Shown here piece by piece: positions 3,346 to 60,776 of a stretch of DNA of 64,000 nt. The notes below the pieces were generated by a model. The model ran no database searches and had not been told where the DNA came from. It saw nothing but the letters and a program-made list of their open reading frames with translations. A program made the translations under genes and the position numbers. The DNA comes from Vicinamibacterales bacterium (GTDB lineage: Bacteria; Acidobacteriota; Vicinamibacteria; Vicinamibacterales; 2-12-FULL-66-21): NCBI GenBank assembly GCA_035491715.1, contig DATJKH010000029.1, positions 23,555 through 87,554 on the forward strand, read 5' to 3'. Each line of letters opens with the position of its first letter. The first letter of the stretch is position 1.

Positions 3346-5559
3346 ATGCAGCAAGTCGTCTCACCTGCTCGACTCATCACGATTGCCGGGCTGCTCGTTC
3401 TGTGTGCCGCCGCTTCAGCCGTCGCGCAGGCGCCCCCGACCAAACTCAAAACGAAGTGGGCCGCCGACGTGTCGCCGACACGTGTGCTTCCCGAATATCC
3501 CCGTCCGGAAATGGTTCGGACAGCCTGGCAGAACCTCAACGGCGAGTGGGATTACGCCATTGCGGACGCCACTGCCCAGAAGCCGGCAGCCTTTGCCGGA
3601 AAGATCCTTGTTCCATTCCCCGTGCAATCGCAATTGAGTGGCGTCGCCGCCGCCGTGACAGACCAACAGCGGCTCTGGTATCGGCGCACGTTTCGCGCCG
3701 GCACCGTTCCGCGCGGGTCGAGAGTACTGCTGCATTTCGGCGCCGTCGACTGGGAGTCGCACGTGTTCGTCAACGGTAAGGAAGTCGGCCGTCATAGCGG
3801 CGGATACGATCCGTTTTCGTTCGACATTACGTCGGCACTCAAGGCATCTGGCGATCAGGAACTCATCGTCAGCGTCTGGGATCCGACCGACAAGGGACCG
3901 CAGCCGCGTGGTAAGCAGGTTCTCGAGCCGAAGAGCATTTGGTACACAGCGGTGACAGGCATCTGGCAGACCGTATGGTTCGAGACCGTGCCCGATGCGT
4001 ACATCACCGGTCTGGATATCGGTACGGATGCCAACGCCGGGACGATCAGCGTGACCGTGCGATCGAACAGCGGCGCGGCCGGGAACGCGCGGGTGACTGT
4101 GCGCGATGGATCGCGAACCGTCGGCGAGGCAACCGGGGGCGTGGGCCAGCCTATCGTCGTTCGCGTTGCGCAACCGAAATTGTGGTCGCCGGATCAGCCA
4201 TTCCTCTACGACCTGCGAGTGGCTCTCGGTGGCGATGCCGTTCAGAGCTATGCCGGTATCCGCACGATTTCCGTGCAACGTGACCAGGCGGGTGTGAATC
4301 GCCTGTTTCTCAATGGTAAGGCGCTGTTTCAATATGGGTTGCTCGATCAGGGATGGTGGCCTGACGGTCTCTACACTGCGCCAACAGACGAGGCGCTCGC
4401 GTCGGACATCGAAACGACCAAGCGTCTCGGTTTCAACATGATTCGCAAGCACGTGAAGGTCGAACCGGCGCGGTGGTACTACCACGCGGATCGATTAGGC
4501 GTGCTCGTGTGGCAGGACATGCCCAGCGGCGGCGACAAGACGCCCGAAAACAAAGACATGTTTGCCGGCGAACTCGAACATGTGATTGACGCCCTGGACA
4601 ATCATCCGTCAATCGTCATGTGGGTCCCCTTCAACGAAGGCTGGGGGCAGCACGAGACGGAACAGTACGTTCAGTGGATTAAGCAGCGCGACCCCAGTCG
4701 CCTGGTGAACAATTCGAGCGGCTGGACCGACAAAGGCGTCGGCGACGTCTCCGATGTCCATTCATATCCGGCGCCGATCCGCCCACCGCTCGAAGATAAA
4801 CGCGCGGCGGTGCTCGGCGAGTTCGGCGGGCTTGGTCTTCCGCTCGAGGGGCACACCTGGATCGAAAAAGGAAACTGGGGATATCGGACCTACAAAACGC
4901 AGGAAGAACTCGGGCAGGCGTATCGCGATCTCATGCATCAGTTGAGAATCCTTGTCGGCGAAGGTCTTTCCGCCGCTATTTATACGCAGACAACGGACGT
5001 GGAGATCGAAGTGAACGGGATGCTCACCTACGACCGCGCGGTTGTGAAGCTTCCGGCCGACGCAAAGGAATTGTCCAACCGGCTATCGACGCCGCCGTCG
5101 GTGCGTGAAGTCGTTGCGACATCGGAAAAGTCGCCACAGTCGTGGCGCTACACAACCAACACACCTGTTGAAAACTGGTTTTCGACGAGTTTCGACGACC
5201 GCGTGTGGACGCAGAGCAACGGCGGCTTCGGCCGGCCCAACCCAAACAATAAGGCAAGCGTCGGAACTCCCTGGCAAACATCCGATATATGGTTGCGAAG
5301 GTCGTTCGATCTTCCCGCCGGCGCGCTGACCAATCCGCATCTGCGTATCTATCACGACGACGACGCCGAGGTGTATTTGAACGGTCAGCGGATCGCGACC
5401 TTGCCGGGTGCGGTCAATGGCTATTCATACGTGCCGCTCGATGCCACGGCAAAGGCGCTGTTGAAAGCCGGGGCCTCAAACATGCTTGCCATTCACGTCA
5501 AACAGGTTCGTGGCGGGCAGTTTGCGGATGCAGGATTGGTTGACGTCGTTGAAAAGTGA
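3346..5559 (+). CDS. glycoside hydrolase family 2 (beta-galactosidase/beta-glucuronidase-like), secreted
   Basis: The GH2 sugar-binding block HFGAVDWESHVFVNGKEVGRHSGGYDPFSFDIT is present. The TIM-barrel blocks FNMIRKH and NHPSIVMWVPFNEGWG are also present. Starting at the in-frame ATG 3346 gives a signal peptide ending AVAQA. The ORF track start at 3322 is a GTG. Confidence 0.8.
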   Translation: MQQVVSPARLITIAGLLVLCAAASAVAQAPPTKLKTKWAADVSPTRVLPEYPRPEMVRTAWQNLNGEWDYAIADATAQKPAAFAGKILVPFPVQSQLSGVAAAVTDQQRLWYRRTFRAGTVPRGSRVLLHFGAVDWESHVFVNGKEVGRHSGGYDPFSFDITSALKASGDQELIVSVWDPTDKGPQPRGKQVLEPKSIWYTAVTGIWQTVWFETVPDAYITGLDIGTDANAGTISVTVRSNSGAAGNARVTVRDGSRTVGEATGGVGQPIVVRVAQPKLWSPDQPFLYDLRVALGGDAVQSYAGIRTISVQRDQAGVNRLFLNGKALFQYGLLDQGWWPDGLYTAPTDEALASDIETTKRLGFNMIRKHVKVEPARWYYHADRLGVLVWQDMPSGGDKTPENKDMFAGELEHVIDALDNHPSIVMWVPFNEGWGQHETEQYVQWIKQRDPSRLVNNSSGWTDKGVGDVSDVHSYPAPIRPPLEDKRAAVLGEFGGLGLPLEGHTWIEKGNWGYRTYKTQEELGQAYRDLMHQLRILVGEGLSAAIYTQTTDVEIEVNGMLTYDRAVVKLPADAKELSNRLSTPPSVREVVATSEKSPQSWRYTTNTPVENWFSTSFDDRVWTQSNGGFGRPNPNNKASVGTPWQTSDIWLRRSFDLPAGALTNPHLRIYHDDDAEVYLNGQRIATLPGAVNGYSYVPLDATAKALLKAGASNMLAIHVKQVRGGQFADAGLVDVVEK

Positions 5560-55553: not shown

Positions 55554-56753
55554 ATGGCCACAGCGACTGTTCACGCAGACGTCCGGCCGGTTCGCGAGTC
55601 ACGTTCCGCAGGCGTTGTCGCACCGCTGCAACGAATCGGCTCACTCGATCTGGTTCGCGGCGCGATCATGGTCCTGATGGCGATCGATCACGTGCGCGTC
55701 TATTCGGGTGTGCCGGCCGGCGGACCGTCCCCTGGCATCTTCTTCACGCGATGGATCACGCATTTCTGTGCCCCGGGGTTCGTGTTCTTTGCCGGGACCG
55801 CCGCGTATTTGCAGGGACGCAAGATTGCCCGTCCCGACCTCGCGAGATATCTGATCACGCGCGGCCTCATGCTCATCGTTCTCGAGTTGACCGTCATCAA
55901 GGCGTCGTGGACGTTCAACGTTAACTACTCGCAGTTTCTTCTCGCCGGCGTCATTTGGATGCTCGGCTGGTGCATGGTGCTGCTCGCTGCCTTCATTTAT
56001 CTGCCATTACGAGCGGTCGGCGCGCTCGGACTGCTCATCATCCTTGGCCAGAGTGCATTCGGCGCGATCGGCGGCGCGCTGCCGCAGTCGGTCCATCCGT
56101 TGTGGGAGTTCATCTATCCGGTCGGTGCGGAATTGCGGCTTGGACAGAATGGTCCGAACGTGACCGTGCTCTACACGATCGTGCCGTGGATCGGCGTCAT
56201 GTGTGCCGGGTATGCATTCGGCTCGATCATGACGCTGCCCGACAACGAACGACGGCGCTGGTGCATTCGAATCGGTTTGACGGCGACGGTCTTGTTCCTG
56301 TTGATAGCCGGGGCCCAGGTCGCCAGGGGCACAGCGGCGGATGGTCCTCCGGCATACGTGCGGCTTCTGAATCAGCAAAAGTATCCGGCATCGGTGCTTT
56401 TTCTGATGATGACCCTTGGTCCCCTCATCGGGCTCCTTCCGTTCGCGGAGCGTGCTCGGGGTTGGATCGCTGAGACGCTGACGTTGTTTGGCCGCGTACC
56501 GTTCTTCTATTACCTGTTGCACATTCCGCTCATTCACGCGCTCGCGCTGGTCGTCAATTTCCTTCGCGTGGGCCAGGCACATGGCGAGCGCTACGCGACG
56601 GCACCGTACGTGTCGATACCGCCGGATCAGCGATGGTCGTTGGCGCTGTTGTATCTGGTGTGGCTGATCGCGGTTGCGATTCTCTATGTGCTGTGCCGAC
56701 GGTACGCCGGCAGGAAGGCTCACAACCCGAGTGCGTGGATGCGGTATGTCTAA
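55554..56753 (+). CDS. DUF1624 / heparan-alpha-glucosaminide N-acetyltransferase-like polytopic membrane protein
   Basis: The block [19 protein letters not shown] is the hallmark start of the family. AGGAGA lies upstream of ATG 55554. Confidence 0.7.
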
Positions 56754-56858
56754 CCTACAAATTCGGCATCAGAAAAACAGAATTGCAGCCTGCCCGCCGT
56801 AACTTTGGCGAAGGAGGGACTTTCCTCCGCGGGCGTGTGAATTGCTTCGCACCGGCGC

Positions 56859-57689
56859 GTGACTCGTGCGCTTGTCCAGGTGCTGCTACAGATTATCGGC
56901 TTCGCAGCCATCACCACCTGGCTGTTTACCCGATCCCAGCGCTCCAGCTACAGCTCGATGATCGCCTTCGTGCTGGGCGTCGCCGGTTTTTTCGTGTTCA
57001 TCGACGGATTCAGGCTTGCTGTTCTCGAGGAGTATCGGACGCGCTACGGTCACGTCGTCACAGGTGTCGTGGAAGATCTGCGTAGTTCAGACAGCTCGAT
57101 CTGGAGCACGTCGCGGATGAAATCGAGCGAGCTTGATACGTACGAACAAGTGTGCCGATTTCTTTTGACGCGTTCACCAGAGGAATGGGTCGTCCACTAC
57201 AGCTATCCATGTGCCGGTGCGACCGGGTCGTGCCGCGTGCGAGAGCAGGTGACACGCGATCTCTGGAGGCGTCTGACCATCGGACAGCCAATTACCGTCC
57301 GTCAATCGATCGACGAAACGAGAACCGCACGGCTGGATGAGAATCCGCAACGCGGATTGGCATTGGTGAAGGTCGCCCTTGCGTGCGTGCTGCTCGCCCT
57401 TTCCGGTTTTGTCAGTGGACGCTTTACGCTCTTCCCCGGCCAGAAATACGTCGAAGTTGACGGCGTTGTCACCTCGGTCGAACCCGTCCAGTACGGTAAT
57501 GAGGCGCGCTGGAAGGTTCGGTTCGCCTACTTCGACGCGCACGGGAACGCGCAGGACAGTGTTGATGAGGTCAACGATCCGTCATGGAAGAGTGGTGACG
57601 GCTGCCGCGCGGTGTATCGTCCAAAGACTCCCGATCTCGCGACGCTGCGTCCCCGTCCGGGGTCTGACCCCCGTCTGACCCCGGTCTGA
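56859..57689 (+). CDS. membrane protein with two DUF3592-like beta-rich modules
   Basis: The architecture is TM helices followed by a VVTGVVEDL... module, then another TM helix followed by a VDGVVTSVEP... module. The start is GTG. The stop codon is supplied by the 11-bp tandem array. Confidence 0.45.
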   Translation: MTRALVQVLLQIIGFAAITTWLFTRSQRSSYSSMIAFVLGVAGFFVFIDGFRLAVLEEYRTRYGHVVTGVVEDLRSSDSSIWSTSRMKSSELDTYEQVCRFLLTRSPEEWVVHYSYPCAGATGSCRVREQVTRDLWRRLTIGQPITVRQSIDETRTARLDENPQRGLALVKVALACVLLALSGFVSGRFTLFPGQKYVEVDGVVTSVEPVQYGNEARWKVRFAYFDAHGNAQDSVDEVNDPSWKSGDGCRAVYRPKTPDLATLRPRPGSDPRLTPV

Positions 57690-57726
57690 CCCCGGTCTGA
57701 CCCCGGTTTGACCCCGGTCTGACCCC
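57661..57726. repeat. 6 x 11-bp tandem repeat (GGTCTGACCCC)
   Basis: Read directly as GGTCTGACCCC CGTCTGACCCC GGTCTGACCCC GGTCTGACCCC GGTTTGACCCC GGTCTGACCCC. The minus strand therefore reads (GGGG N7) x 6. Confidence 0.9.
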
Positions 57727-57741
57727 TGATAGATTTGCGGG

Positions 57742-58605
57742 ATGTGCGCGTCGTTTCCTGACTGGATTGAGCCGATGGCCGCAACCCTGACGCAGGAGCG
57801 GTTCACCGGTCCGGAATGGATCTTCGAGCGCAAGTTTGATGGCATCCGCCTGATTTCGTTCAAACAGGGGGCCGACGTCCGGCTGTTCTCCCGCAATCGC
57901 CTGCCGCAGAACATTCCATCAATCGCCCGCGCCATTGCGGCCTTGCCGGTCGACAACCTGATCCTCGACGGCGAGATCACCTGGGATCGAGCCGGCGCGT
58001 ATCACGTCTTCGACATCGCCTGGATCGATGACCGCGATGTCAGATCGTTGCCGCTGGAGGAGCGTCGCGAAATCCTCAACCGGTTGCCCCTCCGTCCGCC
58101 TCTGCAGCGCGTCACTGCCGTCGACGATCCGAATCCGTGGCAGCGCGCCGAGCGCGAGGGATGGGAAGGGGTGATCGCCAAGCGGCGCGACTCGCGCTAC
58201 GAGCACCGCCGCTCGCCGCATTGGCTCAAGATGAAGTGCGAAGCATCGCAGGAGTTCGTTGTCGGCGGCTTTACCGACCCCCAGGGGGCGCGCGTCGGAC
58301 TGGGTGCCCTGCTGGTCGGCTACTTCGAGAATGCAGACCTGGTGTTCGCGGGAAAGATCGGAACCGGTTTCGACACGAAACTTCTGCTCGAGCTGCGTTC
58401 GCGACTCGACGCTCTCGAAATTGCGACCACACCATTCACCAAAGCGACAGGCCTCCCGCGTCTGCGCGCGCACTGGGTGCGTCCAGAGATTGTCGTCCAG
58501 GTCGCGTTCATCGAATGGACGGTGCACGGCAAGCTACGTCATCCCCGGCTCCTTGGCGTCAGATACGACAAGAATCCGCGCGACGTTGTACGAGAGACGA
58601 CGTGA
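57742..58605 (+). CDS. ATP-dependent DNA ligase (LigD ligase-domain protein, NHEJ type)
   Basis: The adenylation motif I is ERKFDGIR (KxDG). The blocks EGVIAKRRDSRYE and WLKMK are also present. Confidence 0.85.
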   Translation: MCASFPDWIEPMAATLTQERFTGPEWIFERKFDGIRLISFKQGADVRLFSRNRLPQNIPSIARAIAALPVDNLILDGEITWDRAGAYHVFDIAWIDDRDVRSLPLEERREILNRLPLRPPLQRVTAVDDPNPWQRAEREGWEGVIAKRRDSRYEHRRSPHWLKMKCEASQEFVVGGFTDPQGARVGLGALLVGYFENADLVFAGKIGTGFDTKLLLELRSRLDALEIATTPFTKATGLPRLRAHWVRPEIVVQVAFIEWTVHGKLRHPRLLGVRYDKNPRDVVRETT

Positions 58606-59492
58606 TTACGATCACGCATCCGGACAAGATCCTGTTTCCCGACAGCGCGATAACCAAGGGAGAACTGGCCGCGTACTACGAGATGGTGGCGCCGTACATG
58701 GTGCCGCACATGCGGGCGAGACCGGTCACCATGGAACGATACCATCGGGGCATTGGCGCAGCCGGGTTTTTCCAGAAGGACGTGTCGAGAGGTTTCCCCG
58801 ACTGGCTTCAACGGGTCGAGGTGCCGAAAAAGGGAGGCACGGTTCATCATCCGATCGTGACCGATGCCCGGTCGCTCCTGTGGCTGGCGAACCAGAACTG
58901 CATCACGCCGCATGTGTGGACGTCACGCGCGCCAAACTTGTATTACCCGGACATCTGCGTTTTCGACCTCGATCCATCCGAGGAGAATCCGGCGCAGCTA
59001 AAGGCCGCGACGTTTGAGCTGCGCGGCTTTCTCGCTGATCTCGGTCTTCCGAGCTGGCTGAAGACGTCGGGCTCGAAGGGGTTTCACATCGTCGTTCCAC
59101 TCGATGGCAAGACCAACATGAGTGACGTCGCCGAGTTCGCGCACACCGTTGGAACCCTGCTGGTCAAGCGCGATCCCGCCAACCTGACCCAGGAGTTTCA
59201 CAAGATCGATCGTGGCCGGCGGATTCTTGTCGACACCGGGAGGAACGGCTACAGCGCGACGTTCGCAGCCGCGTACGCGGTGCGCGCGAAGCCGGGTGCA
59301 CCGATCTCCGCGCCGTGCACCTGGGACGAACTGCAGCACGGCGACATCGGGCCACAGAGCTTCACGCTGCGATCCATGGCCGCGCGGATCGAATCGGTGG
59401 GTGACGTGTGGGCAGAGATGAAGAAACGAGGACGTTCACTCAAGCGCGCACTCGAGCAGGTACGAAAGATGAAAAACGATGAGACGCATTAA
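58602..59492 (+). CDS. LigD polymerase/primase-domain protein (AEP family)
   Basis: The block ITHPDKILFPDSAITKGELAAYYE..RPVTMERYHRGI..FFQKD is typical of LigD-Pol. The GTG start overlaps the ligase stop (GTGA). The ORF-track start at 58137 is an out-of-context extension. Confidence 0.85.
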   Translation: MITITHPDKILFPDSAITKGELAAYYEMVAPYMVPHMRARPVTMERYHRGIGAAGFFQKDVSRGFPDWLQRVEVPKKGGTVHHPIVTDARSLLWLANQNCITPHVWTSRAPNLYYPDICVFDLDPSEENPAQLKAATFELRGFLADLGLPSWLKTSGSKGFHIVVPLDGKTNMSDVAEFAHTVGTLLVKRDPANLTQEFHKIDRGRRILVDTGRNGYSATFAAAYAVRAKPGAPISAPCTWDELQHGDIGPQSFTLRSMAARIESVGDVWAEMKKRGRSLKRALEQVRKMKNDETH

Positions 59493-59529
59493 TCTCCGCA
59501 TGTCTCGCGTGCTATAGTCGCCGCGGCGA

Positions 59530-60255
59530 ATGTTCGGCTTATTCCCTTACGGCATCCTCCTGCAGATCCTCGCGATCATTCATTTCATCCGTCGACGTCC
59601 CGACACGTACTGGCTCTGGATCATTCTCATGTTCCCGGGGTTTGGCGCCCTCGCCTACATCCTCATCGAGGTCATCCCGGATTTCGGTCTGCTGCGATCG
59701 TCTTTCCAGGTCTTTCCGCGGCGAAAGCGCATCCGCGCTCTCGAAAGCATGATTGTCGACAATCCTTCGATTGGAAACTACGAAGAGCTCGGCGATCTGT
59801 ATCTGGACGACGGGCAATTCGTCAAAGCGCGCAAGTGCTTCGACGACGTGCTGGCGCGCGAGGAGTCGATCGATCCGTTATACCGCCGTGGGCTGACGGC
59901 GCTGGCGCTGAACGATTACCGCGCGGCGGTTGCCGACCTGGAAAAAGTGATCGCGCTCGACGCGAAGTACGACTATCAGCGGGCGGCCGGGCTTCTCGCT
60001 CACGCGCTAGGCAAGATCGGTGAGCGCGATCGCGCCAGCACGTTATTCGCAGACGTGACCCAGATGTCGACACTCACCGAAACCCAGTACAACTACGCGT
60101 CATTTCTCGCCGAAACCGGCCGCGTTGGCGAGGCGCGCGAATGGGCCGAGCGCATCCTGCGCAAAAAGGCGACGATGCCGGATTACATTCGGCGCCGCGA
60201 GCGTCCGTGGTTTCGCAAGACACGCGCGCTCCTCAAGGGACTCCCGAAGACCTAG
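59530..60255 (+). CDS. membrane-anchored TPR-repeat protein with a PLD-nuclease-N-terminal-like 2-TM module
   Basis: The N-terminus LQILAIIHFIRRRPDTYWLWIILMFPGFGALAYILIE matches the 2-TM module. It is followed by TPR-like helical repeats (GDLYLDDGQFVKARKCFDDVL...). Confidence 0.55.
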   Translation: MFGLFPYGILLQILAIIHFIRRRPDTYWLWIILMFPGFGALAYILIEVIPDFGLLRSSFQVFPRRKRIRALESMIVDNPSIGNYEELGDLYLDDGQFVKARKCFDDVLAREESIDPLYRRGLTALALNDYRAAVADLEKVIALDAKYDYQRAAGLLAHALGKIGERDRASTLFADVTQMSTLTETQYNYASFLAETGRVGEAREWAERILRKKATMPDYIRRRERPWFRKTRALLKGLPKT

Positions 60256-60263
60256 CGAAGCGA

Positions 60264-60776
60264 TTATTTCTTCCTGAGGACGGCCGCCGAAATCAGCGTC
60301 ACCAGAAGTCCGATCGGAAACGGCTCGCTGAACGTCATCGCCACGTTCAGCAAGGGGTTCTGGTACATGCGTTTGAAATCTTCCATCTGACGCGCGTGGG
60401 CATCGACTGCCTCTTGGCTTGCACCTGATGCCTTCACGTGCTCGATCGAATACGCCGCGTACTTATCGGCAAAATCCGGCATCATTTTGAAATAGATGAA
60501 TTCCCACGTGATGACGTAGCCCGCGCACGAAATCAGCGTGATAAGGAGACCGACGAGGACGCCGCGTCCAAAAGACAGGCGACCACCGTTGGACTCCCGG
60601 TAGGATCGGACACCAAAAAAGACCAGGAGAAACGACAGCACAATCGCCGTGTATCCGAAAATTGCGCCCTTCTCGAAGCCGAGACGGTGGATAAAAGGCA
60701 CCGTTGCCAGCATCATGGCCGACGAGAGGGCCGCGGAAAGTAAGCCGAATTTGAGAACCGTCTTCTTCATCGACAT
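60264..60776 (-). CDS. DUF4199-like small membrane protein
   Basis: The start MSMKKTVLKFGLLSAALSSAMMLATVPF and a 4-TM layout resemble DUF4199. Confidence 0.55.
   Translation of the reverse strand: MSMKKTVLKFGLLSAALSSAMMLATVPFIHRLGFEKGAIFGYTAIVLSFLLVFFGVRSYRESNGGRLSFGRGVLVGLLITLISCAGYVITWEFIYFKMMPDFADKYAAYSIEHVKASGASQEAVDAHARQMEDFKRMYQNPLLNVAMTFSEPFPIGLLVTLISAAVLRKK

Follow-up and report, generated by a model that had tools for sequence, protein, structure and literature searches.

A tandem 11-bp repeat in front of the ligD genes of a Vicinamibacterales bacterium: a dispersed repeat family and a candidate leaderless promoter

Short repeats and leaderless promoters in bacteria

Repeats and mobile elements are known to contribute promoters in bacteria, as exemplified by the outward -35 hexamers of insertion sequences and by the promoter-bearing Correia elements of Neisseria. 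In the phase-variable contingency promoters of Neisseria and Haemophilus, simple sequence repeats are located between the -35 and -10 elements. Dispersed short repeats are exemplified by the STRR sequences of cyanobacteria and by REP units. STRR sequences consist of short head-to-tail units at many, mostly intergenic, loci; they are capable of forming hairpins, occur in promoter and intercistronic positions, and have no known function (PMC2670836). REP units are stem-loops with stems of 5-13 bp, loops of 2-20 nt, and a terminal GTAG or CGTC tag, with the CGTC REPs having no dedicated transposase (PMC3733652). With respect to promoters, leaderless TANNNT promoters not accompanied by a Shine-Dalgarno sequence have been predicted for Acidobacteria, Actinobacteria, and Deinococcus, and leaderless genes, their TANNNT lying some 12 bp ahead of the start, were predicted in three of three Acidobacteria genomes (PMC3160421).

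Vicinamibacterales (Acidobacteriota) are abundant in soil and barely cultured, and their regulatory DNA is hardly known. The 64-kb stretch of Vicinamibacterales DNA analyzed here, referred to below as the window, contains a tandem array of 11-bp units in front of ligD. This array belongs to a lineage-wide repeat family and was probably, though by no means certainly, gained at ligD, where its last two units were recruited as promoter DNA while the rest continue to slip.

The array and its copy-number variation

The array occupies positions 57661..57726 on the plus strand and consists of six 11-bp units with the consensus GGTCTGACCCC, as recognized by sequence inspection, TRF, and family membership. 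TRF returned a period of 11, 6.0 copies, and 92% matches, with a score of 118, the highest in the window. Single-base variants are found in two units (unit 2, CGTCTGACCCC; unit 5, GGTTTGACCCC), and each unit comprises a palindromic 4+1+4 core (GGTC-T-GACC), one TGA, and CCCC, which reads GGGG on the minus strand. With up to one mismatch allowed, the unit has seven matches in the 64-kb window, all of them inside this one array, against 0.97 expected, and none of 100 shuffles of the window reached seven. A preliminary description of this DNA had reported six head-to-tail units with two single-base variants, a C-rich stretch just 5' of them that was read as a degenerate unit, and a three-frame stop, all of which are present: the C-rich stretch (CGTCCCCGTCCGG, 57648..57660, plus strand) is coding (..RPRP..), is divergent in the sister species, and might be a decayed unit, and the TGAs at 57665, 57676, and 57687 occupy three different frames, with further TGAs at 57698, 57709, 57720, and 57727.

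The upstream open reading frame (56859..57689, plus strand) encodes a membrane-protein-like product of 276 aa with no Pfam family above threshold. Its earlier label, DUF3592-like, was not borne out, with Pfam giving no DUF3592 match even at E<=10 and only a sub-threshold match to DUF4131. The frame does terminate, as had been described, at the third TGA (57687-57689), and its last 10 codons (GSDPRLTPV*) come from the array. Units 1-4 (57661..57704) form the variable 5' part, which holds most of the copy-number change in the window's population and at the same time encodes the last residues and stop of this frame. It had been expected that the C-terminus would change whenever a unit was gained or lost; instead, the 4-, 5-, and 6-unit alleles share the tail ...PRPGSDPRLTPV*, and the 8-unit allele differs by a single R>G replacement. 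The length is 276 aa in all alleles, the 8-unit allele included, because the periodic array, at any copy number, brings a TGA into frame no later than its third unit. The upstream gene is mostly deleted in two related lineages.

The LigD ligase-domain gene (57742..58605, plus strand, 287 aa) begins at the ATG at 57742, beyond the 3' end of the array at 57726, in agreement with the placement described earlier. This ATG is likely to be the true start: codons 1-11 are conserved, with changes mainly at third positions, although many gene calls begin at Met12. The GTG start of the LigD primase-polymerase (Prim-Pol) domain gene (58602..59492, plus strand) overlaps the ligase stop codon (GTGA), and the two genes therefore belong to the same operon. 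Since ligD always lies downstream of same-strand genes, read-through transcription from upstream is possible.

Ten metagenome contigs with an identical ligase protein, together with the window, carry arrays of 4, 5, 6, or 8 units between identical flanks, and arrays in sister species contain 3-5 units. The allele arrays are 44-88 bp long, shorter than the assembler k of 141. In the 4-unit allele (L004), unit 5 has also been lost. At the orthologous site of an array-less relative, eight contigs showed no length variation. The array is a natural VNTR, its copy number differing within one population while the flanks stay constant; the suggestion that it is prone to slipped-strand mispairing is thus upheld, and the comparison with related contigs that had been proposed as a check shows it not to be invariant.

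A dispersed repeat family

A two-unit pattern search retrieved at least 116 stretches, nearly all in MAGs of Acidobacteriota/Vicinamibacterales; about 9 matches are expected by chance in 596 Gb, in agreement with the roughly 10 non-acidobacterial matches of 2-3 units. Among the matches listed, there are up to 8 loci per MAG, and 171 arrays of 2-11 units make up 130 clusters (98 direct and 32 inverted), with the inverted clusters having the G-arm before the C-arm in 31 cases and the opposite order in one. None of the genome-contig loci retrieved is the window's own ligase locus, and the window's genome is represented by this 64 kb with its one array. GTTCTGACCCC variants occur in some family arrays, and one 57-nt element (L118) lies in frame inside an ABC ATPase gene. 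A literature search for the 11-mer in either orientation returned only unrelated primer or eukaryotic/viral matches, and none on Vicinamibacter tandem repeats; the family is apparently new to the literature. The genomes studied also hold many heptamer arrays.

Like STRR sequences, the GGTCTGACCCC family consists of short head-to-tail units at many unlinked, mostly intergenic loci of one bacterial lineage, is capable of forming hairpins, and occurs in promoter and intercistronic positions. It differs in its unit length (11 bp rather than 7), its hosts (Acidobacteriota of the order Vicinamibacterales rather than heterocystous cyanobacteria), the palindromic core of the unit, and the presence of stops in all three frames of one strand only; its arrays, moreover, also form inverted pairs with a strong orientation bias, and one lies in frame within a gene. 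The family is, therefore, an analogue of STRR sequences and not a member of STRR1-3. With REP and REPIN sequences, it shares a high copy number, short palindromes, and a mostly extragenic location, often downstream of genes, and, with REPINs in particular, inverted dimers of one predominant orientation (31:1) and a rare in-frame intragenic copy (L118). Unlike a REP, however, the unit has 4-bp arms around a 1-nt center, is unable to fold alone, and has been amplified in tandem; CGTC occurs only as a variant of its first tetranucleotide, and a stem-loop with a terminal tag is not found. In a scan of 148 array-flanking genes, a RAYT, Y1, or other transposase did not appear among the top Pfam families; CGTC REPs, too, have no dedicated transposase. 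A MITE in which inverted arms flank a conserved core was also considered and rejected, given that what lies between the arms is mostly unrelated among 29 arm pairs, with only short genome-specific 'head' motifs and homology stopping after about 25 nt.

The direct arrays show no orientation bias toward neighboring genes (19/17/15/10 across four contexts, these counts being approximate, as contexts were taken from a crude GC3-based caller that misses real genes, Prim-Pol included). The stop codon of the upstream gene is the first, second, or third TGA of the array in 13 cases. Most of the 22 'inside gene' calls were discarded as 5' over-extensions through the stop-free strand. Because the unit stops all frames on one strand and is open on the other, it is a hazard to annotation, generating spurious extensions of reading frames and pseudo-peptides of the GVRPGSDRGQT type.

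The Pfam scan of the 148 flanking genes, with 57 further flanking genes left out, yielded 155 families, none in more than four genes and with no enrichment of NHEJ functions. When the ligase, Prim-Pol, TPR, and upstream proteins of the window were compared by tblastn with all family loci, an adjoining LigD was found only in L060, and Prim-Pol homologues were found kilobases away from the arrays in L036 and L073. A link of the family to NHEJ or mobile-element genes was accordingly rejected. The proposal in the preliminary description that the array controls or marks NHEJ genes is not supported, arrays of the same 11-mer occurring at 116 or more other sites beside unrelated genes.

More broadly, GGTCTGACCCC arrays might be a hitherto unrecognized class of transposase-independent, actively spreading, hypervariable tandem-array DNA that seeds stops, protein tails, and promoter parts, with the ligD alleles tuning NHEJ expression; we regard this wider reading as rather unlikely. 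If it were true, the ligD alleles (3-8 units, with or without TTGACC, and with or without four G-tracts) would amount to a contingency-like tuning of double-strand-break repair at the population level in an abundant uncultured soil bacterium. Being lineage-specific, easily recognized, and polymorphic, the family could also be useful for typing strains or as a population-genetic marker in soil metagenomes.

The conserved core and the candidate ligD promoter

The array is present at orthologous loci whose ligase is 93, 91, 90, and 88% identical to that of the window (L127, L129, L131, and L133, respectively) and in L146; the locus at 86% (L134) probably carries a derivative, and the array is absent at 84% and 83% (L135-L142 and L130). 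A metagenome scan with the 17-nt 3' junction returned 44 matches, 41 of them chance matches in unrelated DNA and only three orthologous (L145, L146, and L164). The array would thus have been gained in the ancestor of lineages with a ligase about 86-88% or more identical to that of the window, in the space separating the final upstream-gene codons from the -10 box of the ligD operon (ligase and Prim-Pol), its first three units supplying the upstream frame with a new tail and stop regardless of copy number.

Units 5 and 6, together with the 15 nt that precede the start codon, constitute a conserved core of 37 nt (57705..57741, plus strand). Across five lineages, 3 of its 37 positions are variable, as compared with 201 of 287 (70%) ligase third-codon positions (P about 4e-15), and its variability is also below that of the ligase first and second codon positions (12%). 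None of the three variable positions falls inside either of the promoter elements described below; two substitutions lie within the repeat units, both in L131, which lacks the upstream frame, and the core is kept in L131/L132 despite the missing frame. This part of the array is, by these comparisons, under strong purifying selection. In the 3-unit species the units also encode the tail of the upstream frame, and slippage or conversion can homogenize units, so that the conservation is possibly inflated.

A consensus scan detected within the core a -35-like hexamer, TTGACC (57708..57713, plus strand), arising from the C>T variant of unit 5, and an extended -10 box, TG-A-TAGATT (57727..57735, plus strand), located 16 nt past TTGACC and 6 nt before the ATG, the layout being TTGACC, 16 nt, TGnTAGATT, 6 nt, ATG. 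The TAGATT hexamer spans 57730-57735, its first T preceding the ATG at 57742 by 12 nt, and the TGA and TAG inside the extended box are extra stop codons. Within 56500-60500, TTGACC-16-TAGATT with its upstream TG was the sole sigma-70-like site. TTGACC is invariant in the window, L127, L129, L131, L133, and L146, with CTGACC in the 4-unit allele L004 and TTAGAC in L128. All orthologues, with or without an array, have a TA(G/C)A(T/C)T box 6-8 nt before an (A/G)TG, and where relatives have no array, the upstream frame stops at the TAG of their equivalent TAGACT box.

The distance of the first T of TAGATT from the start codon and the absence of a Shine-Dalgarno sequence are those of the high-GC leaderless sigma-70-type promoters (TANNNT, first T ~12 nt upstream; PMC3160421). 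This arrangement is about 6-fold overrepresented in the lineage: of 704 lineage ORFs, 3.0% have TAnnnT precisely 6 nt ahead of their first in-frame start codon, against a background of about 0.5% at neighboring offsets and 0.1% at internal control codons. The ligD site differs from the typical leaderless-type promoters of the lineage, 22 of 40 of which match TTGACA at merely two of six positions and two of 40 of which have a TG extension, in having both a near-complete -35 (5/6) and the TG extension. The core therefore appears to be a sigma-70-like promoter of a leaderless ligD mRNA, with 57742 the likely 5' end of the ligase transcript, although both its activity and this start are predicted from sequence; the earlier suggestion that the array lies where the ligase promoter must be fits well with the penultimate unit providing a strongly conserved -35, TTGACC, 16 nt from the extended -10 box.

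In the proposed history, the two 3'-most units would have been co-opted as promoter DNA, with the C>T change in the penultimate unit creating TTGACC 16 nt before TGnTAGATT. RNA polymerase would then begin transcription on the start codon or immediately beside it, because the TGnTAGATT box sits 6 nt before the ATG, giving a leaderless ligD mRNA, while the units farther upstream would be free to slip in replication, producing a VNTR of 4-8 units in the window's population. The locus would accordingly be an example of a dispersed repeat captured as promoter DNA, held there by selection with its upstream units still slipping, and a candidate leaderless promoter architecture (TAGAYT-type -10) for an NHEJ operon. 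As in the promoters provided by insertion sequences and Correia elements, a dispersed element beside a resident -10 box would supply the -35 and the hybrid promoter would be kept by selection; unlike in those cases, the donor is a bare tandem array, the -35 arises via a point change in a unit, and the product is leaderless. Arrays as generic portable promoters were rejected, since TAnnnT shows no enrichment at promoter-compatible offsets downstream of 157 family arrays, and the promoter role is for this reason a claim about one locus.

The same observation is compatible with the view that the array is a VNTR, neutral or selfish, that has no function at ligD, which would be transcribed from farther upstream or from the -10 box alone, with the conservation of the units reflecting concerted evolution and coding constraint on the tail of the upstream frame. 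That the family occurs in every context without orientation bias and beside unrelated genes, that leaderless-type promoters of the lineage usually lack a -35, that the units encode the frame's tail in 3-unit species, and that array-less relatives do without the array are all in its favor. Homogenization should, however, wipe out a position-specific variant, yet the T of TTGACC stays in the penultimate unit in six lineages; moreover, the core survives deletion of the upstream frame (L131/L132), and its variability lies below that of any codon position of the ligase. We therefore consider a purely neutral array unlikely.

Because most leaderless-type promoters of the lineage have no recognizable -35 and rarely a TG, conservation of the two repeat units may also be due to something else, for instance a regulator that binds there, rather than to a -35. 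The 11-mer (GGTC-n-GACC, with a period of about one helical turn) would then be the site of a sequence-specific protein, either a family-wide nucleoid or recombination protein or a ligD regulator such as a direct-repeat LexA-type repressor, with units 5-6 conserved as an operator overlapping the promoter. Maintenance of the unit sequence over more than 100 loci in many species and the coverage of the -35 and spacer by the conserved units, a typical operator position, are consistent with such a protein. The period and direct-repeat form also resemble the LexA box of Alphaproteobacteria, defined as two GTTC 11 bp apart (GTTC-N7-GTTC; PMC3323433), and the GTTCTGACCCC variants of some family arrays can be counted on the same side. 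The units in the window, however, read GGTC, CGTC, or GGTT and never GTTC, and GTTC-N7-GTTC is at chance level there (4 matches versus 3.0 expected), for which reasons a LexA direct-repeat operator was rejected; it is also implausible that a repressor would have its site scattered over more than 100 unrelated loci, even within genes. Overall, a protein-binding array is improbable.

The minus strand reads (GGGG-N7)x6, confirming an earlier statement that it satisfies the G3+N1-7 rule, and this is the sole classical (G3+N1-7)x4 motif on either strand of the 64-kb window. A G-quadruplex on this (template) strand, or an i-motif on the plus strand, might regulate the NHEJ operon, with copy number tuning its stability. 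The best 25-nt G4Hunter window scores 1.72, the alleles of the window's population all have at least four units, the minimum for four G-tracts, and promoter G4 motifs have been proposed as regulators of DNA-repair genes in Deinococcus. Against these points, the mean G4Hunter score is a borderline 1.12 (25-nt windows, 0.76-1.72), below the usual cut-offs of 1.2-1.5, the loops are 7 nt long, and runs of four C are rather short to form an i-motif at neutral pH. Each strand shows strong self-complementarity (minus-strand DNA folding, z -3.7), so that a hairpin or duplex competes, and family arrays are found in both orientations and as inverted pairs, the latter likewise favoring hairpins. The four-tract rule also fails in the 3-unit species L129, L131, and L133, which keep the core, and at the orthologous loci L134, L130, and L135; the motif is thus not conserved across orthologous promoters. 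The G4/i-motif element of the preliminary description is, on this evidence, highly unlikely.

Hairpin formation could instead act in RNA. The segment 57640-57760 is predicted to fold at -59.7 kcal/mol (z -6) with the ligase AUG inside the stem, and the array, as the 3' end of the upstream mRNA, might form a long hairpin that terminates or stabilizes the upstream transcript or hides the ligD start codon in read-through mRNA. The location of 17 of 61 direct arrays between convergent genes, with many abutting stop codons, and the hairpin roles credited to STRRs and REPs (PMC2670836, PMC3733652) point in this direction. No U-tract is present, however, and a scan found no terminator at the array; the pairing of the flanks is not conserved, with the upstream flank replaced in L131 and the 10-nt repeat at 57533/57744 lost in L133; and the hairpins of 3-unit arrays are much weaker while the core is still kept. 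A known structured RNA was rejected, as Rfam searched with permissive filters gave no match at E<=1 within 57000-58300. An RNA element is, consequently, very improbable.

With the core read as promoter DNA, the ligD array resembles contingency repeats in being slippage-prone, located in a promoter region, and polymorphic in copy number in natural populations. If ligD expression responds to copy number or to the TTGACC unit, the alleles would represent natural regulatory variation in DNA-repair capacity, and the natural allele without the TTGACC unit is predicted to have a weaker promoter. Unlike in contingency promoters, the array is not between the -35 and -10, no on/off switch of frame or spacing is apparent, and the promoter changes only via loss of the TTGACC unit (allele L004). 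With the -35 itself part of the periodic repeat, the spacing does not depend on how many units lie upstream: in the 5-, 6-, and 8-unit alleles, TTGACC is constantly 16 nt from TAGATT, and the ligase reading frame is untouched.

The array and the dispersed 11-mer family

The array at window 57661–57726 consists of six head-to-tail GGTCTGACCCC units, as given in the preliminary description, with C as the first base of unit 2 and T at position 4 of unit 5, and is the window's best tandem repeat (period 11, 6.0 copies, 92% matches, score 118; Tandem Repeats Finder). All seven matches to the unit with at most one mismatch in the 64 kb fall within the array, versus 0.97 expected. Each unit was confirmed to carry one TGA, rotating through the three frames, and the reverse strand of the array has no stop in any of its three frames. 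The upstream ORF (56859–57689) does end at the third TGA, with the ligase ATG at 57742; its labelling as DUF3592-like finds no DUF3592 match in Pfam. The array lies between the arms of a perfect 10-nt inverted repeat, CGACGCGCAC / GTGCGCGTCG (57533–57542 and 57744–57753), the downstream one of which spans ligase codons 1–4; the repeat is probably fortuitous, because that arm is not kept at the ligD locus of the relative L133.

A search of 185,579 species-representative genomes (596 Gb) with a pattern of two adjacent units returned at least 116 stretches, nearly all from Acidobacteriota/Vicinamibacterales MAGs, with 5–8 loci each from several genomes among the matches listed; the ~9 chance matches expected in 596 Gb account for about 10 two-to-three-unit matches in unrelated phyla. 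The matches listed contain 171 arrays of 2–11 units in 130 clusters, of which 98 are one-directional. The remaining clusters are inverted pairs: in 31 of these (for example, L016:2526–2593, L041:4056–4101, and L090:3391–3425), (GGGGTCAGACC)n precedes (GGTCTGACCCC)m, versus the reversed order in one, a bias that recalls the head-to-head bias of REP dimers. Also among the matches listed, direct arrays show no orientation bias relative to neighbouring genes (19, 17, 15, and 10 over four contexts), many arrays adjoin gene ends, and 13 upstream genes terminate at array TGA 1, 2, or 3, as at the ligD site of the window. The 148 genes flanking the listed arrays represent 155 Pfam families, with at most four genes per family and with no enrichment of transposase, reverse-transcriptase, or NHEJ functions. 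Given this, and the occurrence of at least 116 stretches elsewhere, the suggested NHEJ-specific role of the array is not upheld.

No parent element, and no core shared between arms or outside the arrays, was found in the family, only short genome-specific head motifs: CCTTGAGTCGnCCCnTCACCAG is joined to arrays in DASYQV01 and JBOGIW01 (L050:2364–2388; L066, at both ends; L074:about 4264–4290), and TTGGAGTTTTTCCAA-type motifs, joined to arrays in DATNEY01, form an inverted pair around a ~125-bp segment (L045:2178–2305; L069:7588–7608; L123:1338–1466). Such array-joined head motifs may mark sub-families or composite elements. One family member is intragenic: at L118:2685–2741, the gene for a two-domain ABC transporter carries a 57-nt element, (GGGGTCAGACC)3-AT-(GGTCTGACCCC)2, in frame in the part encoding its second ATPase domain. 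The ~20–22 extra residues (EGSDRGQTGVRPWSDPGLTP) fall after the LDEPT motif (Walker B/D-loop region) and before the H-loop, in a segment whose length is otherwise constant (35 residues) and here reaches 57. This indicates that family members arrive as insertions.

A full-text literature search found neither the 11-mer motif nor Vicinamibacter tandem repeats described, and the family is apparently undescribed so far. Among the kinds nearest to it are the cyanobacterial STRRs—dispersed tandem heptamers that form hairpins and whose function is unknown (PMC2670836). The family resembles REP/REPIN elements in its extragenic habit, biased inverted dimers, and occasional intragenic copies, and CGTC REPs likewise have no dedicated transposase; however, the 11-mer unit falls outside the REP stem-loop definition (PMC3733652). 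Four arrays (L023, L113, L124, L125) occur in the MAG DASRPK01, labelled Gemmatimonadaceae, which also appears to carry an 83%-identical ligase orthologue (P0098); the taxonomic label or purity of this bin is therefore doubtful.

Copy number and history of the ligD site

The exact ligase protein of the window is found on many metagenome contigs, ten of which were retrieved for allele comparison. Within identical flanks, six of these carry 6 units, one carries 8, two carry 5, and one carries 4, so that the slippage-prone character proposed earlier is reflected in actual alleles. Misassembly is unlikely, since the assembler's k-mer (141) exceeds the length of every array (44–88 bp). Among eight contigs of an array-less relative species, site length is constant. 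It is very nearly certain that the array is a polymorphic member of a lineage-specific dispersed tandem-repeat family. The anticipated effect of unit gain or loss on the upstream protein was not seen: its length is unaffected across the 4-, 5-, 6-, and 8-unit alleles, with the tail reading ...PRPGSDPRLTPV* in the first three and differing by a single residue in the last.

Ligase orthologues of 80–93% identity were compared and their contigs examined. Five units are present in L127, L128, and L145 (ligase 93% for L127/L128) and in L146 and L164, and three units in L129 (91%), L131 and L132 (90%), and L133 (88%). L134 (86%) has, between GGTCTGAGCC... and ...CGCCCC-TGATACATT, a heptamer array of (TTGAGCC) that probably derives from the 11-mer array. 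The array is absent from L135–L142 (84%) and L130 (83%). In L135, the TAG stop of the upstream ORF lies within TATAGACT, 7 nt ahead of the GTG start, which indicates that the array was gained in the interval separating the upstream gene's final codons from an already existing −10-like box. The 276-aa upstream ORF is mostly deleted in two related lineages (L131/L132:1376–1500; L134:1435–1500), with a remnant of its 3′ end still visible in L131, and is thus dispensable; the array or its derivative is kept in these lineages, together with the −10 box. L127:1405–1586 (as also L145) is a composite of a G-rich arm of 3–4 reversed units, ~70 bp of unrelated sequence, and a five-unit forward array, with the upstream ORF reading through the reversed arm.

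A candidate leaderless ligD promoter

In the window (57742–59492), LigD is split between two genes that overlap at GTGA, one for the ligase domain and one for Prim-Pol, with no phosphoesterase domain detected. They are followed by genes for TPR/PLDc_N and DUF4199 proteins. Many gene callers place the ligase start at Met12 rather than at 57742; the latter is likely the true start, because codons 1–11 are conserved and change mainly at third positions.

A consensus scan of 56500–60500 gave a single sigma-70-like site: TTGACC (57708–57713), a product of the C>T change in unit 5, is separated by 16 nt from TAGATT (57730–57735), itself preceded by TG. In a comparison of the window, L127, L129, L131, and L133, third-codon positions of the ligase differ pairwise by 30–46% (201 of 287 variable over the five lineages), and the 37 nt before the start (57705–57741) contain three variable positions, none within TTGACC or TGATAGATT (binomial P about 4e-15), a smaller share than even at codon positions 1 and 2 (12%). 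The T-variant unit is penultimate in all array-bearing lineages except the 4-unit allele L004 (CTGACC) and L128 (TTAGAC). A TA(G/C)A(T/C)T box stands 6–8 nt before (A/G)TG in all orthologues, array present or absent.

Start geometry was surveyed for 704 ORFs from ~0.9 Mb of the lineage (the window and L011–L126). In 3.0% of these, the first in-frame start follows TAnnnT at a distance of exactly 6 nt (~6-fold enriched), whereas adjacent offsets give ~0.5% and internal codons taken as controls 0.1%, suggesting from sequence a sizeable class of leaderless mRNAs; Shine-Dalgarno-like tetramers form a separate peak. Leaderless genes have been predicted in three of three Acidobacteria genomes (mean 13.3%), with TANNNT ~12 bp ahead of the start, a geometry with which the spacing of T57730 to A57742 agrees (PMC3160421). 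The −10 boxes of this type are often TAGAAT, TAGACT, or TAGATT; one example is TAGAAT-cttgac-GTG at window ~10141, minus strand.

On the pattern of conservation, it is rather probable that the 3′ end of the array serves as −35 element and spacer of the predicted leaderless ligD promoter. It would have been taken over for this purpose, with the 5′ units slipping freely and supplying the stop to the upstream ORF. Alternatively, the two conserved units could be kept for a bound factor instead of sigma contacts, as most leaderless-type promoters of the lineage have no recognisable −35, and the TG extension occurs in 2 of 40; by the same measure, the predicted ligD promoter is atypically complete. 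Hybrid promoters built from mobile-element ends are a known kind, which promoter capture at ligD would resemble. The array is unlike classical phase-variable promoter repeats, since copy number leaves the −35 to −10 spacing unchanged. A generic promoter function of family arrays is not supported.

Quadruplex, hairpin, and heptamer arrays

The minus strand of the array is, as first described, the sole classical (G3+N1-7)×4 motif within the window; a quadruplex as the role of the array is not supported (G4Hunter mean 1.12, 25-nt windows 0.76–1.72). The four-tract rule is satisfied only with at least four units (the window's alleles, L127, L146) and fails in L134, L130, and L135 and also in L129, L131, and L133, in which the core is conserved, so that quadruplex potential is not the conserved property; a quadruplex is possible as a lineage-specific overlay on the array. 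The unit is self-complementary, and the predicted fold of the array region has an RNA free energy of −59.7 kcal/mol (z −6), with z −3.7 for the minus strand as DNA; flank pairing of the predicted hairpin is not conserved, an RNA-family search of the region matched no known family, and a terminator scan reported none at the array. The units do not match the LexA-type direct-repeat operator GTTC-N7-GTTC (PMC3323433), a pattern at chance level in the window.

About 85 heptamer-based arrays with diverse units were found in 0.9 Mb of 11-mer-bearing genomes (TRF). C-rich ones lie directly 5′ of −10 boxes of leaderless-type genes, including two other LigD genes: (TTGAGCC)n at the orthologous LigD (L134:1435–1500) and (CAAGCCC/CGAGCCC)n at a distant fused LigD (L060:about 4810–4960, minus strand), which also has a two-unit 11-mer upstream. 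A further array of this kind, (TGAGCCC)n, likewise directly precedes such a box at L044:about 3965–4000.
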